Source: a virus. Taken from it: a stretch of DNA of 31,516 bases. Position numbers and translations under genes: made by a program. The stretch lies in the IMG/VR virus record IMGVR_UViG_3300020724_000020; one strand, written 5' to 3'. A model generated the notes under the pieces. The model searched no databases, was not told the origin of the DNA, and worked only from the letters and a program-made list of their open reading frames with translations. Shown one piece after another: positions 7,092 to 26,342 of the stretch (position 1 is its first letter; each line of letters begins with the position of its first letter).

Positions 7092-7415
7092 ATGAAATAC
7101 TTAAAAACATTCGAAAATTCTAATTATGAAAAATTTATAGTAGAAGAAGAAGTAGAAACTCATTTTGATATATATGAAATATTAAAATTTATACCAGAAG
7201 ATAATGATTTTATTATAATCAAAAGATACTCAACCTGGCCCAAACTATACTGTGACTTTTATCCTGACAAAAACACCAAACTAAAAAAAATTGATTATGA
7301 CACTTCTTTTCGCTGTCCCTCCAATGTCATTAATATTGTTTTTCAAACTAATTATATACAAGAAGCCGTACAATATGTTGAAATGAGACTTGACGCTAAT
7401 AAATACAATTTATAA
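7092..7415 (+). CDS. Fam-A member (MKYLKTFENS ... RLDANKYNL)
   Basis: ORF track; head and tail motifs. Confidence 0.65.
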   Translation: MKYLKTFENSNYEKFIVEEEVETHFDIYEILKFIPEDNDFIIIKRYSTWPKLYCDFYPDKNTKLKKIDYDTSFRCPSNVINIVFQTNYIQEAVQYVEMRLDANKYNL

Positions 7416-7598
7416 TGAATTTAACTTCTCTAACTTTCTCTTCCTTATCTCTTTAATACTCACACAAACTGCATTATCCACCTGATCACAACCAAAGTGA
7501 CCACAACCTGTTGTCTTATCATGTACAAGATAATGTACACACTTAACACCAACAGTACACTTATCACTATACTCACATATTAACTTTTCCTTCTTCAT
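7410..7598 (-). CDS. Fam-B small Cys-rich protein (subtype iii), tail IRKRKLEKLNSL
   Basis: ORF track; Cys/His pattern CxYSxKC...C.H...HD....C...CG shared with 7849-8109(-). Confidence 0.5.
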   Translation of the reverse strand: MKKEKLICEYSDKCTVGVKCVHYLVHDKTTGCGHFGCDQVDNAVCVSIKEIRKRKLEKLNSL

Positions 7599-7862
7599 AT
7601 ATTAATTGATTTTAACTTCTCCAATTTTATTTTCCGCATTAACATATTAGCAGTCATATATTTATAATTCTTAATGTTAATATAAAAACAATACAAATGT
7701 TTGTAAGGCTCTCCTAACGCTATAATTTTAGATTCACTTATTCTTAACCAACCATACCTAAGATTAACAATTGAACCAACAGAAAATAAAATTTTTTGAA
7801 CCTTTATAGATTCATCAACATTCTTACATTGTATGATATAATTACCTTTTATAATTTTTCAT
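7598..7862 (-). pseudogene. Fam-B subtype ii paralog disrupted near the start by a 13-nt insertion/frameshift; tail MRKIKLEKLKSI
   Basis: manual translation MKNYKR-stop then NYIIQCKNVDESIKVQKILFSVG...; parallels 11821-12105(-). Confidence 0.45.
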
Positions 7863-8109
7863 TAATCCTCTTTAACTTTTCCTTCCTTACTAACCTATTA
7901 TAATCTACACAAACCGCAATATAATTAATCTTTATCTTTAATGACTTATCATTTATCAAAATATGTTTTAACCAACCACAATTTGATACATCACAAGCAT
8001 TTTGATAATCATGCTCAAAATGATGTCTACAAACAAAAGGACCAAAACCTTCTATTAATTTACATTTACTATAATTCTCACAAATTACTCCCATATAATA
8101 AATATACAA
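7849..8109 (-). CDS. Fam-B small Cys-rich protein (subtype iii), tail LVRKEKLKRINEKL
   Basis: ORF track. Confidence 0.5.
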   Translation of the reverse strand: MYIYYMGVICENYSKCKLIEGFGPFVCRHHFEHDYQNACDVSNCGWLKHILINDKSLKIKINYIAVCVDYNRLVRKEKLKRINEKL

Positions 8110-8125
8110 CTCTTTTTCCTAAAAT

Positions 8126-8143
8126 AAAAATTTTATATATAAA
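8126..8143 (+). promoter_or_regulatory. island promoter-like box AAAAATTTTATATATAAA
   Basis: immediately upstream of ATG 8147. Confidence 0.4.
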
Positions 8144-8146
8144 TGA

Positions 8147-8554
8147 ATGAAATATATTAAAACGATTTATCAAAAAGTTTATGAAAAATTATCATATGAT
8201 GAAACAAATCCATTACTAATACAACTATATGAAAAAATAATTGAAATTACAAATGAATTTGAATTTGAAATAAAAAAAGAAACAAGTGACGAATATGCCG
8301 CCATTGTTTTTACAAATTCAAAATACAAATTAAGCACATTAATAACAGATAATAGAAATTTCAAATCATTCGTAATGAACGATGATGCAAAAACATATAG
8401 TGACCAAATGAAAGACCTTGTAACATTTATGAAAACGATTTTACCAATCCATAATGGTGAAGATTTTTATTTTAAATACACAGAAACCTTTAACTTTATA
8501 AATAAACTAAATGACTTTGAACTATGGAGAGATACTCTAAAATATAATCTATAA
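8147..8554 (+). CDS. Fam-A member (MKYIKTIYQK ... RDTLKYNL)
   Basis: ORF track. Confidence 0.65.
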   Translation: MKYIKTIYQKVYEKLSYDETNPLLIQLYEKIIEITNEFEFEIKKETSDEYAAIVFTNSKYKLSTLITDNRNFKSFVMNDDAKTYSDQMKDLVTFMKTILPIHNGEDFYFKYTETFNFINKLNDFELWRDTLKYNL

Positions 8555-8556
8555 CA

Positions 8557-8844
8557 ATGAAACATATAACACCCTTTATTATATTCGAAAAAAAAGAAAC
8601 TCCACCCCAAATTGATGATTATGTTATCGTTTACGATGACCGAGTGCTTTGGCAGTACCGTGAAAAATCTAATTTTATTATAGGAAAAATTATTAAAATA
8701 AGATATATAGCATATAATACACCCGAATATGCCATCGTATCTGGTAATAGAATTATTTATTTTAAAAGAGAAGACATAATTGAATACTCCAAAAACAGAA
8801 AAGAACTAGAATATATAGAAGATGTAAATAAATATAATTTATAA
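8557..8844 (+). CDS. Fam-A member (MKHITPF ... EDVNKYNL)
   Basis: ORF track; degenerate head. Confidence 0.6.
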   Translation: MKHITPFIIFEKKETPPQIDDYVIVYDDRVLWQYREKSNFIIGKIIKIRYIAYNTPEYAIVSGNRIIYFKREDIIEYSKNRKELEYIEDVNKYNL

Positions 8845-8845
8845 T

Positions 8846-9286
8846 ATGAAATACCTAATGAAATTAAATGAATATAAAAATAAATCTAAACCACAAATTT
8901 ATGACTATGCCATCGTATCTTCTCTTATAAATAAAAATGACCATCCTCTTTTAGAACCTTCTTTTGATCCCGAATTCAAAAAATTTATAGGAACTAATAT
9001 ATGTAATATAACCAAGAAGATAGACAATTTCGAACAAAATAACAGAAATGCATACCAAATAGAATATGATACTGTGCCACCAAAATTTAAATATTTGTTT
9101 GAGGAATATTTTTGGGAAAAAAACATAGCAACTCCAGCAAGACTTTATAATAGTATAAGATATATTAGAAAAGAAAATTCAAAAATAACATATAGAAGAT
9201 GGATACCAGAAGAAAATATATTCTTCTACTCACACAATAAAGAAGACGTAGATACATATGTAGATGCAATAAAATATAATTTGTGA
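8846..9286 (+). CDS. Fam-A member (MKYLMKLNEY ... VDAIKYNL)
   Basis: ORF track. Confidence 0.65.
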   Translation: MKYLMKLNEYKNKSKPQIYDYAIVSSLINKNDHPLLEPSFDPEFKKFIGTNICNITKKIDNFEQNNRNAYQIEYDTVPPKFKYLFEEYFWEKNIATPARLYNSIRYIRKENSKITYRRWIPEENIFFYSHNKEDVDTYVDAIKYNL

Positions 9287-24592: not shown

Positions 24593-24602
24593 TGAAATTG
24601 TA

Positions 24603-24906
24603 ATGAAATACCTTAAACTCTTTTGAAACAAAATCTTTTAAAAAATTCATCGTATGTGAAGGTGAATTATACTCTCAATTTCAAATATGGGAAATTATTC
24701 GTTTTAATAAAACAGTAAACCAATTTACTCTGATAAAAAAATATGAAACAGGTGATGATTATAATATTATAGAAAATACAAAACCAAAAGAATATAACTT
24801 TAACAAAATAACAACATATAACGATGTCATCTTCAAAACTAATAACCTAGAAGAAGCATTAGAACATATGGAAATGAAAATAAATGCAATAAAATATAAT
24901 CTGTAG
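24603..24906 (+). pseudogene. Fam-A member with frameshift in T4 run after codon 7 (MKYLKLF-stop; remainder ETKSFKKFIVCEGELY...INAIKYNL in +1 frame)
   Basis: manual translation; preceded by duplicated junction TAATGAAAT-TG-TAATGAAATA. Confidence 0.5.
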
Positions 24907-24912
24907 CCACAA

Positions 24913-25215
24913 ATGAACCACCTTAAACTATTCGAATACTTCGTAAATAATATTGACTATGTTAAAATTTCAACAGAAGCATTACAATATATGGAACTCT
25001 ACCCAATAGTTAGAATAATAGGTAAAAAAACATATAATAATAGAGGAATTCCTATAAGACCAAAAGGTACTCTTTATAGAGTAGAAGGTATAGATAGCAA
25101 AACAAATAAAATGAGAATACTAAATATGTCAGACTTCGAACTAAGCGATAAAGCATCACAAGAAGAAATAGAAAAATATGAATTTATGAAATCAACAATA
25201 AAATATAATCTGTAA
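24913..25215 (+). CDS. Fam-A member (MNHLKLFEYF ... KSTIKYNL)
   Basis: ORF track. Confidence 0.65.
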   Translation: MNHLKLFEYFVNNIDYVKISTEALQYMELYPIVRIIGKKTYNNRGIPIRPKGTLYRVEGIDSKTNKMRILNMSDFELSDKASQEEIEKYEFMKSTIKYNL

Positions 25216-25248
25216 GTAATTACAGAAATCGTAAAAAACGATTAATCT

Positions 25249-25575
25249 ATGAAATATATAAAACTATACGAATACTCCAATGTAGACTATAAACCAGGTG
25301 ATTATGTTAGAATATCCCTGTTCTTTATACCATCACTAAATATGAAATGGGAAAAAATACATACTACCAATATAGTAGAATCCATATATAAAAGTTATGC
25401 TAAAATACTAACTATTAAACAACATACAAATAACTATGGCGTAGAATTTATAAATTCAAAAACATATGAAATACTAAACTGCTGGTTAGATGAAAAAGAT
25501 ATACTAAGACCTCTAACACCAGAAGAAATTGATGAATTCGAAGCAATGCTATCAGCAAATAAATATAACCTATGA
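25249..25575 (+). CDS. Fam-A member (MKYIKLYEYS ... LSANKYNL)
   Basis: ORF track. Confidence 0.65.
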   Translation: MKYIKLYEYSNVDYKPGDYVRISLFFIPSLNMKWEKIHTTNIVESIYKSYAKILTIKQHTNNYGVEFINSKTYEILNCWLDEKDILRPLTPEEIDEFEAMLSANKYNL

Positions 25576-25663
25576 AATATATTAAAATATACGAATCTAA
25601 CGATACAAGTTATTTGAAAAAAATTTAGAAGCTAAAATAATAGCATCAAAATATAATCTGTAA
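25572..25663 (+). other. empty Fam-A cassette: head MKYIKIYESNDTSYLKKI-stop then out-of-frame tail EAKIIASKYNL-stop, no cargo
   Basis: manual translation of 92 nt between full members. Confidence 0.5.
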
Positions 25664-25723
25664 CGATAACCTATAAATTAAAGACGCATCTATTAAAGAC
25701 GCATATAAAAAATAATTACCAAT

Positions 25724-26017
25724 ATGAAACACTTAAAATTATTCGAAGACTTTGAAGACCACTATACATTCGAATGCTCAGGAGCACCAAAACCAACCTT
25801 CTCGACTAAAGCCGAATTCTTCTCATTCATGGAAGAAAATGGTTTCAAACACTCTACACTTAATAAAAAAACAAATATGCTCATAGTTCAATATAAAGGA
25901 CAAGGTACACTCAAAGAAAAAAAAGCACAAACATATAACATTCCAATCTATACATATAAAGAAGCAAAAGTGAAAGTTAAAGAAATAGCAGATAATATGT
26001 CAAAATACAATCTATAA
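25724..26017 (+). CDS. Fam-A member (MKHLKLFEDF ... ADNMSKYNL)
   Basis: ORF track. Confidence 0.65.
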   Translation: MKHLKLFEDFEDHYTFECSGAPKPTFSTKAEFFSFMEENGFKHSTLNKKTNMLIVQYKGQGTLKEKKAQTYNIPIYTYKEAKVKVKEIADNMSKYNL

Positions 26018-26018
26018 T

Positions 26019-26342
26019 ATGTACCATATAAAACAATATGAAAATTTCTTAACCGACTTCTTTAAACCTAAAACTGTTAAAATTCCTTCAAAAAGTGAAA
26101 TGTATCCTTATAATATATTAAAATTCAATTATAAAGAAGGCCAAATAGTTAAATTAATACAAACAGATAATATAGGCGAAATAATTAAACAAACATTTAT
26201 AATTACATTGAATGTAACACCAATACCAGTATATATACTCGATATCGATCCACCAAATACAAAACATGAAGAATCAGAACTAACTATACCAACACCAGAA
26301 GAACTTGAATTGTATAAAATGACAAAAAAATATAATCTGTGA
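26019..26342 (+). CDS. Fam-A member (MYHIKQYENF ... MTKKYNL)
   Basis: ORF track. Confidence 0.65.
   Translation: MYHIKQYENFLTDFFKPKTVKIPSKSEMYPYNILKFNYKEGQIVKLIQTDNIGEIIKQTFIITLNVTPIPVYILDIDPPNTKHEESELTIPTPEELELYKMTKKYNL

Follow-up and report, generated by a model that had tools for sequence, protein, structure and literature searches.

A tandem family of small phage proteins with shared termini and varied cargo domains, and a possible counterpart of the T4 capsid-targeting sequence

Why would about 27 small genes of one phage, many of them packed end to end, begin and end alike and yet encode different proteins in between? The question is raised by a viral contig of 31,516 nucleotides (nt), IMG/VR record IMGVR_UViG_3300020724_000020 (the window, meaning this whole stretch), in which an earlier reading of the sequence alone had noticed open reading frames (ORFs) sharing only an N-terminal head and a C-terminal tail ending in KYNL, with a variable cargo in between. 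The window derives from an AT-rich, T4-related huge phage, and the family is apparently undescribed in the searchable literature. Here we consider whether the shared termini are real, what they enclose, and whether the head might be an address for the phage capsid.

Conserved termini on different folds

A chance likeness of the heads and tails can be set aside. The tail pattern AARTAYAAYYTNTRR, encoding K-Y-N-L-stop, has 24 matches in the window, all on the plus strand, whereas shuffled sequences predict 0.26. In a six-frame scan, KYN[LMVI]-stop ends number 26 on the plus strand and 0 on the minus strand, and a narrow head pattern gives 7 matches versus 0.00 expected. The head consensus, M-K-[HY]-[IL]-K-x-[FY]-E, is in register in 196 of 210 sequences in a logo, with E8 in 184 of these 196 heads, and is joined to the domain by a linker of 8 residues (median). 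The tail had been put at about eight residues; the real conserved tail spans some 14-17 residues and has the character of an amphipathic helix, approximately E-[DE]-L-E-h-x-[LI]-x-A-[KN]-K-Y-N-[LI]. The window holds 18 intact head-and-tail genes and about nine decayed, frameshifted or partial copies, so that the original count of about 27 holds if head-only, degenerate, frameshifted, remnant and partial copies are included. Neighbouring family genes overlap as ATGA or TAATG, as had been described. The members, all on the plus strand, are as follows.

1721-2068, head-only member (MKYIKLFENY...), no KYNL tail
7092-7415, singleton member of 107 residues, head MKYLKTFE, tail DANKYNL; minus-strand genes next, no family gene behind
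8147-10850, array 1; intact genes 8147-8554, 8557-8844, 8846-9286, 9866-10234, 10231-10548 and 10545-10850
about 9285-9377, remnant in array 1
9374-9869, ankyrin cassette in array 1, split by a frameshift (9374-9661 and 9645-9869)
14311-17168, array 2; intact genes 14311-14646, 14643-14873, 14870-15106, 15345-15773 and 15798-17168
15103-15348, degenerate array 2 member, no tail
15798-17168, 456-residue member of array 2, no recognisable or Pfam domain
17575-17601, orphan tail remnant (TDAKKYNL-stop) behind a receiver gene
21026-21430, doubtful relative that ends RKYNV, no head, Bacteroidetes-type promoter-like motif upstream
24302-26342, array 3; intact genes 24302-24592, 24913-25215, 25249-25575, 25724-26017 and 26019-26342
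24302-24592, first gene of array 3, ends KYNM
24603-24906, array 3 copy frameshifted by one extra T
25572-25663, remnant in array 3
30838-31516, array 4; intact gene 30838-31152, then a partial TTG-started member from 31158 past the window end

Two of the tails closing in CTG are followed by a small hairpin pair (25210-25243 and 26337-26366), the first hairpin of which reads CTGTAA-GTAA-TTACAG in one copy and CTGTGA-GTAA-TCACAG in the other, a compensatory change. CTG, otherwise a rare leucine codon here, is yet the final codon of 5 of the 24 window tails. Directly past array 3, an 11-nt sequence, AACGCTTTCCA, is repeated 4.7 times in tandem (26647-26698).

With the termini removed, the middles of most member pairs have no BLASTP similarity, and the same termini are found on at least three different folds: BRCT, ankyrin and SH3-like. 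The cargo of 25724-26017 is a BRCT domain, matching phrog_3869 (NAD ligase C-terminus) at 2.6e-7; its AlphaFold model has a predicted local distance difference test score (pLDDT) of 86, and nearly all of the top 45 Foldseek matches are BRCT domains, the Pfam BRCT match (0.019) lying under the cut-off. The ankyrin member reported earlier does match ankyrin profiles (9374-9661; Ank_2 at 3.3e-8, also Ank_4, Ank and Ank_3, all above the Pfam gathering score), but its gene is disrupted. The third fold, marked by a DDYV or GDYV motif, is common to the members starting at 8557, 8846, 9866, 10545 and 25249. For 9866-10234, a model based on a 119-sequence alignment is a beta-rich barrel with pLDDT 85, with structural matches, weak ones only, to SH3-like folds (BAH, PetP, ribosomal eL-type proteins). 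The head-cargo-tail architecture is thus borne out, and the view that the middles are unrelated is right for most pairs and between folds but wrong within the SH3-like subfamily. The further idea that head and tail pair into a clasp was rejected on the two AlphaFold models, in which the head takes up no structure (pLDDT 51-59 and 42) and the tail just closes the last helix, its final residues being modelled less confidently.

The family is large and restricted to AT-rich viral contigs. A profile search with 52 members against 1.84 billion proteins retrieved at least 3,138 cluster representatives (50% identity) at E<=1e-3, 552 of them at E<=1e-10, while neither Pfam nor PHROGs contains a model covering the head or the tail. 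In 50,697 deposited phage genomes, tblastn with two members gave no match, and the family is absent there at that sensitivity. A 20-nt junction pattern had 89 matches in 596 Gb of bacterial and archaeal genomes; these resemble chance matches, with a masked 5.7-kb contig in a Muribaculaceae bin (L041) as the one doubtful exception. In IMG/VR, 39 of 58 matches to this pattern were real arrays, on contigs with 22-29% G+C and up to 330 kb long. Arrays longer than those of the window occur elsewhere (about 30 members in L002 and 24 in L016), with cargoes that include ankyrin, and heads are also found on HAD and NADAR domain proteins. Literature searches with the motif strings returned irrelevant matches only, and the huge- and jumbo-phage papers found make no mention of the family.

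The head motif and T4-type head genes

What could the head be for? The first ten residues of the T4 internal protein (IP) IPIII read MKTYQEFIAE. They form the capsid-targeting sequence (CTS), which packaging requires and for which it suffices; targeting hinges on residues 4 and 7, and processing on residues 8 and 10 (PMC9026906). The prohead protease gp21 cleaves after Glu in L/I-x-E, and the Alt protein is trimmed at both ends (PMC9026906). T-even internal proteins are diverse counter-defence proteins whose common part is the CTS only (PMC3012670), and IPI at least is an injected counter-defence protein (PMC3012670, PMC9026906). The family head shares with this sequence M1, K2, a hydrophobic residue 4 and an aromatic residue 7, and also has Glu 8, in a motif that is too short for statistics. 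One metagenomic member, P0046, starts MKKFKEFLKEDA, near the T4 CTS, again over a short motif. P0034 and P0046 are BRCT members fused to an upstream unit, whose N-terminus (MKKFKEFLKEDA / MLNFKDFIKEDA), followed by a Gly-rich stretch, is even closer to MKTYQEFIAE than the usual head. Two-unit fusions occur occasionally (P0023, P0038).

The genomic context of the head points in the same direction. The window's MVP_shoulder/Vault_3 protein (18515-19801, plus strand) shares 47-51% identity with proteins encoded by huge phages known from metagenomes, LR756500 (462 kb) and LR756501/LR756503 (735 kb); the kinship link to LR756500 is this MVP-like protein, 51% identical to that of the window. LR756500 has a T4-type head module, comprising a portal (Portal_T4 2e-70; phmmer against T4 gp20 3e-33), a prohead protease (226725-228623; Peptidase_S77 6e-11; against gp21 1e-8) with a scaffold-like C-terminal part, and a capsid protein (Gp23 8e-34). 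A search of the LR756500 and T4 proteins against the family-bearing loci tied contigs with family genes to this machinery. L115 encodes a portal (Portal_T4 3.7e-63) and the start of an S77 protease (Peptidase_S77 2.6e-7), with two family genes 1.3 kb upstream on the same strand, and on L126 a family gene is accompanied by a T4-type terminase and by an ankyrin protein that ends in KYNL. Comparison of family-bearing and capsid-gene contigs by name revealed no overlap among the matches listed.

The same head was found within head-morphogenesis modules. In IMG/VR loci whose capsid gene is related to that of LR756500, the head starts ORFs placed either between protease (phrog_207, 6e-36) and capsid or directly after the capsid gene; such head-starting ORFs are present in the capsid-gene neighbourhood of 15 of 32 loci and 17 of 77 loci. 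Examples of their starts are MKHIKLFEDFVNEA, MKRVKLLEEFIAEQ, MKYVKLFEQFIKED, MKHVKTFDKFIAEG, MKHIKLFEQFIAKS and MKYVKLFEQFILEE. These head-module relatives often read MKH[IV]KLFE[EQ]F[IL]xE, that is, they carry an F-[IL]-x-E extension, in some literally EFIAE (MKRVKLLEEFIAEQ). In T4, the prohead core genes occupy comparable places, with gp67 and gp68 between portal and protease and gp22 between protease and capsid. In the IMG/VR relatives, the ORFs directly after the capsid gene are not gp24-like by Pfam. Taken together, T4-type head genes on family contigs and the same head in head-morphogenesis modules give strong circumstantial support to the earlier suggestion that the head serves as a signal.

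In LR756500 itself, which is a complete genome, about 24 proteins start MK[YF]I[KL]EYEEF[IL]xE and none ends KYNL. They include leucine-rich-repeat (LRR) proteins, an R2K ATP-grasp enzyme, a DUF2201 metallopeptidase/VWA protein and a ligase-like protein. A subset, with the head MKYIKEYEEFILE and in some cases LRR cargo, ends instead in an acidic/aromatic tail, NADDFGFFDN, and lies at the following positions of LR756500.

11706-17016, NADDFGFFDN-tailed family
180972-181730, NADDFGFFDN-tailed family
198758-199531, NADDFGFFDN-tailed family
313382-313912, NADDFGFFDN-tailed family
331856-332545, NADDFGFFDN-tailed family

This tail may resemble the C-terminal clamp-binding tails of T4-like phages. 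Because LR756500 combines the same head with another tail, head and tail are independent modules, and not, as first thought, a single constant wrap.

A promoter-like motif may connect the arrays with structural genes. On the plus strand of the window, TTTATATATA has six sites, all 5-9 nt before an ATG; one precedes the receiver gene at 17208 and the other five precede first genes of arrays or singletons of the family.

1706-1715, plus strand, TTTATATATA, 5 nt before the ATG of 1721
7076-7085, plus strand, TTTATATATA, upstream of 7092
8132-8141, plus strand, TTTATATATA, upstream of 8147, first gene of array 1
24284-24293, plus strand, TTTATATATA, upstream of 24302, first gene of array 3
30824-30833, plus strand, TTTATATATA, upstream of 30838, first gene of array 4

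The motif also lies 5' of the L115 family array, the L126 terminase operon and an L126 ORF of 905 residues. It is not enriched in LR756500, where a related motif, ATATATAAWA, is enriched and occurs 20-35 nt before capsid, protease and sheath genes and several very large ORFs, as well as before head-bearing genes. The T4 late promoter is TATAAATA. We therefore regard TTTATATATA as a candidate phage promoter of late type, and the analogy suggests that the arrays are co-expressed with structural genes.

On these grounds, we hold with moderate confidence that the head is this lineage's prohead-targeting propeptide, the counterpart of the T4 CTS, because of the conserved M1, K2, positions 4 and 7 and E8, together with the F-[IL]-x-E or EFIAE of the head-module relatives. 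Small modular proteins would be made from translationally coupled arrays driven by the TTTATATATA motif. During prohead assembly, the unstructured head would dock each protein onto the scaffolding core and would then probably be cut off after the glutamate by the S77 (gp21-type) prohead protease. In this way, capsids would come to contain the cargoes (SH3-like, BRCT, ankyrin and others), and the next host would receive, together with the DNA, a varied array of modules that bind host targets or counter defence. For the members, late timing and packaging, like cleavage and injection, are steps that we infer. The amphipathic helix ending in KYNL-COOH is a second, family-specific module under purifying selection; its role may be that of a further anchor or propeptide (Alt is processed at both ends), of a tip that binds a partner after injection, or of a helix cap inherited from an ancestral SH3-like protein. 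A bolder version would make head and KYNL tail a two-ended address system that loads dozens to hundreds of binder domains per genome into capsids, KYNL being a new C-terminal cargo-loading peptide for an HK97-fold shell or scaffold, and the injected counter-defence repertoire being renewed by shuffling at the junctions; this we consider doubtful.

If the head is a capsid-targeting tag, no known set of proteins sent into a phage head would come near the family in size. The family would offer a catalogue of thousands of small domains delivered before gene expression, a source of anti-defence and host-takeover proteins. The N-terminal M-K-[HY]-[IL]-K-x-[FY]-E would become a rule predicting virion-packaged proteins in uncultured T4-related huge phages, and also a ready-made label with which foreign proteins might be loaded into their capsids.

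Several observations weigh against a targeting role of the head. Few positions underlie the likeness to the T4 CTS, and in AT-rich genomes proteins commonly start with MK. Leucine or isoleucine at position 6, which with E8 would give L/I-x-E, is present in 46 of 196 heads only. The specificity of the protease is not readable from an alignment of the capsid N-terminus with T4 gp23, in which the T4 site falls in a gap. The members are of mixed charge (median isoelectric point, pI, 6.25 in the window and 5.7 among metagenome representatives, with pI >8 in 25-30%), unlike the T4 internal proteins, which are typically basic although CTS function does not depend on it, and the KYNL tail is without counterpart in the latter. 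Dozens of members per 15-30 kb imply very many packaged species, beyond any known internal-protein set. The window contig itself contains no structural genes, and the head-bearing enzymes of LR756500 need not be virion proteins. Packaging and cleavage are argued from sequence and context.

The alternative that survives best would keep the proteins out of the capsid altogether. In this case, head and tail would be short linear motifs by which intracellular adaptors dock binders onto one phage or host hub, such as a protease, a replisome or transcription factor, or the MVP/SPFH-like shell protein nearby, much like the F-box/PRANC logic of eukaryotic viruses. A disordered head and an exposed C-terminal tip are typical of linear motifs, and ankyrin, BRCT and SH3-like domains, as well as the LRRs of LR756500, are classic protein-protein interaction modules. 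The independent combination of heads and tails (NADDFGFFDN in LR756500), the mixed rather than basic charge and the MVP_shoulder/Vault_3 protein adjoining arrays in both phages also fit adaptors. However, adaptors would leave unexplained why many relatives have the head on genes between prohead protease and capsid, and why it resembles the T4 targeting sequence, in some down to EFIAE; moreover, no candidate hub has been identified. We therefore consider non-packaged adaptors unlikely.

Alternatively, the members might be ordinary diverged paralogues, that is, one small SH3-like ancestor multiplied in tandem, with termini kept for folding or stability and with the odd cargoes acquired secondarily. 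The GDYV type does dominate the family worldwide: about 112 of 188 retrieved proteins, including most of the best 150 database matches, belong to this type and are alignable as 'GDYV ... SKNKEDLE ... KYNL'. Its tail helix is modelled confidently (pLDDT 89-95), and several window members align over their full length. Yet whole-length homology is confined to the GDYV subfamily. Members with BRCT and ankyrin cargo, distinct in fold from each other and from the SH3-like type, wear the same head and tail, and most pairs of middles lack BLASTP similarity. In addition, the head lies outside any modelled fold and occurs on unrelated large proteins and with another tail. Simple paralogy is accordingly still less probable than adaptors, and targeting of the prohead by the head remains the reading that we prefer.

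Selection on the peptides and recombination at the junctions

Since the tail of one gene, its stop codon and the head of the next form a recurring DNA element, is it the peptide or the DNA that is conserved? We examined codon use in 112 non-identical head-and-tail genes from the window and 60-odd related loci. At tail K, Y and N and head K2, K5, Y3, F7 and E8, codon choice equals cargo usage (Fisher p 0.14-0.86). Constraint is seen at the final codon alone; its third letter is A in 105 of the 112 genes, as needed for the ATGA overlap. Replacements within head and tail are conservative (Y/F, L/I/M/V). Tails are kept by genes with no family gene behind (7092-7415, 10545-10850, 15798-17168 and 26019-26342), and the head is likewise retained by first genes, which no family gene precedes. 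Cargo-like codon use, conservative replacements and termini kept at array ends together establish that the peptides themselves are under selection; here, the synonymous variation seen by the sequence-only reading, codon use in the window taken by itself and the 112-gene test agree. Two head codons depart from cargo usage in the same 112 genes: His3 is CAC in 42% versus 17% in cargo (p=0.004) and Tyr7 is TAC in 41% versus 10% (p=7e-5). The KYN codons (AAATATAAT) contain TATAAT, and their use as a -10 box was ruled out by the codon statistics and the tails of terminal genes.

That a nucleic-acid junction (a promoter, a site of re-initiation or translational coupling, or a recombination site) is what is selected, with the peptides as by-products, is very improbable and, as the sole explanation, largely refuted: it would fit the pure A/U codons available to K, Y, N, L, I and F, the resemblance of the junction to the TTTATATATA motif before first genes, the A-ending last codons and the breakpoints and perfect 64-nt repeat at junctions, but the invariant K, Y, N, K2, K5 and E8 vary at their third codon positions just as cargo residues do, replacements are conservative at the protein level, and the tail persists in array-end genes and singletons, as does the head in first genes.

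The DNA of the junctions nevertheless has consequences of its own. A direct repeat spans tail, stop and head (...KKYNL*/MKYIKLYENENKWNKV) on both sides of the ankyrin cassette, which its two copies bracket.

9359-9422, plus strand, 64-nt direct repeat, copy 1
9851-9914, plus strand, 64-nt direct repeat, copy 2 (100% identity, spacing 492)

Array 3 (24302-26342) is syntenic with L016 2083-9069, with 7 units, two of them decayed, versus 24 in L016, and the ends of the blocks aligned between window and L016 lie in head or tail sequences. The synteny comparison thus reveals presence/absence differences in cassettes, with breakpoints at the junctions. Because both the breakpoints and the repeat fall there, the conserved termini act as recombination handles, as had been surmised, at least as a consequence of their conservation. 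The roughly 40-60 nt common to all gene ends and starts provide homology for unequal recombination, by which cassettes are created and deleted. Whatever the function of the family, it offers a clean case of conserved gene termini doubling as recombination handles, with 7 versus 24 cassettes at one locus.

Host phage, neighbouring genes and known systems

The window has a G+C content of 25% and densely packed small genes, and deposited phage genomes contain no near-identical match to it. Among the genomes of Al-Shayeb et al., the one of 735 kb falls in the 'Mahaphage' clade, with predicted Bacteroidetes hosts (PMC7162821). Several window genes have a Bacteroidetes-type TAnnTTTG motif 5' of them; motifs of this kind (e.g. 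cgTATCTTTGca) lie upstream of 19894, 21026 and 21522 on the plus strand and of 13788-14222 on the minus strand, a gene set that differs from the one behind TTTATATATA. Because the two motifs precede different genes, they suggest two transcription classes and a Bacteroidota host, and the host of the window phage is probably a member of the Bacteroidota.

Other genes lie near or among the arrays. The MVP-like protein (18515-19801) matches MVP_shoulder at 8e-28, Vault_3 at 8e-8 and, weakly, SPFH, and in both the window and LR756500 an MVP-domain gene lies a few kb from a head-bearing array. IS605 OrfB/TnpB and GIY-YIG endonuclease genes adjoin arrays on related contigs. Further neighbours in the window are listed here.

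2152-3447 and 3434-3721, minus strand, a region with an ORF of 431 residues that has no Pfam match and two strong LR756500 homologues (E ~1e-77); this ORF may be a mobile element
3951-4715, plus strand, papain-family cysteine protease (Peptidase_C1 8.5e-16), among the arrays
12225-12824 and 12814-13437, minus strand, neighbouring paralogues of about 200 residues, both beginning MK-x-R-x-GFVSNSSSS, no Pfam match
17208-17564, plus strand, stand-alone response-regulator receiver domain (7e-9), with TTTATATATA upstream as in the family arrays

A second tandem family, Fam-B, consists of small basic proteins (median pI 9.3), many of which start with a 'GDxV' SH3-like motif and all of which have a conserved basic tail, approximately [RK]-K-x-K-L-x-[KR]-[LI]. 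Most of its genes run in the direction opposite to the KYNL genes, and the two families co-occur on contigs L002, L016 and L018. Its members in the window are the following.

812-1084, plus strand, Fam-B
1070-1372, minus strand, Fam-B
5785-6090, minus strand, Fam-B
6099-6698, minus strand, Fam-B
6721-7038, minus strand, Fam-B
7410-7598, minus strand, Fam-B
7849-8094, minus strand, Fam-B
10845-11264, minus strand, Fam-B
11501-12105, minus strand, Fam-B
12814-13437, minus strand, Fam-B
17878-18484, minus strand, Fam-B
19894-20211, plus strand, Fam-B
20422-20961, plus strand, Fam-B
22565-22876, plus strand, Fam-B

How do the head-cargo-tail genes compare with systems already known? Polyvalent proteins, which are injected by phages and plasmids (mentioned in PMC7824862), likewise deliver varied counter-defence domains with the DNA. 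They are single giant multidomain polypeptides, whereas the window has separate small genes, each with its own address tags. In encapsulin cargo-loading, a short C-terminal peptide on unrelated cargo binds the inside of an HK97-fold shell; its likeness to the KYNL tail is one of analogy only, with no sequence similarity. The ankyrin/PRANC, F-box and BTB expansions of large eukaryotic viruses also join a variable binder to a constant short docking module and are amplified in tandem, but they differ in hosts, in motifs and in having a documented mechanism, the recruitment of ubiquitin ligases.

Closer at hand are the propeptides of T4, phiKZ and SPN3US, in which a terminal peptide targets the prohead core and a gp21-type protease cuts after Glu. 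Giant phages pack many different proteins in this way, and T4 Alt has propeptides at both ends. Unlike these, the KYNL tail is mostly without an obvious protease motif.

The sequence-only reading knew of no described family with this architecture, which is too strong a statement, as the T4 internal proteins share only a ten-residue N-terminal CTS (PMC3012670, PMC9026906). T4 IPI, IPII and IPIII are, like the present proteins, unrelated small proteins with an N-terminal M-K tag of about ten residues, in which residues 4 and 7 are key. They too are encoded by phages with a gp20 portal, gp21/S77 protease and gp23 capsid, at loci that are polymorphic between related phages. On the other hand, there are three of them, compared with dozens per 30 kb and thousands of clusters here, and they are basic and lack a conserved C-terminus. 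The last residues of the T4 tag are I-A-E and those of the family head [FY]-E8, F-[IL]-x-E being confined to the head-module relatives. Packaging of the present family is proposed by analogy. With these differences, the closest known system is that of the T4 CTS and internal proteins, here massively amplified, provided with a second, C-terminal module and found in uncultured huge phages.

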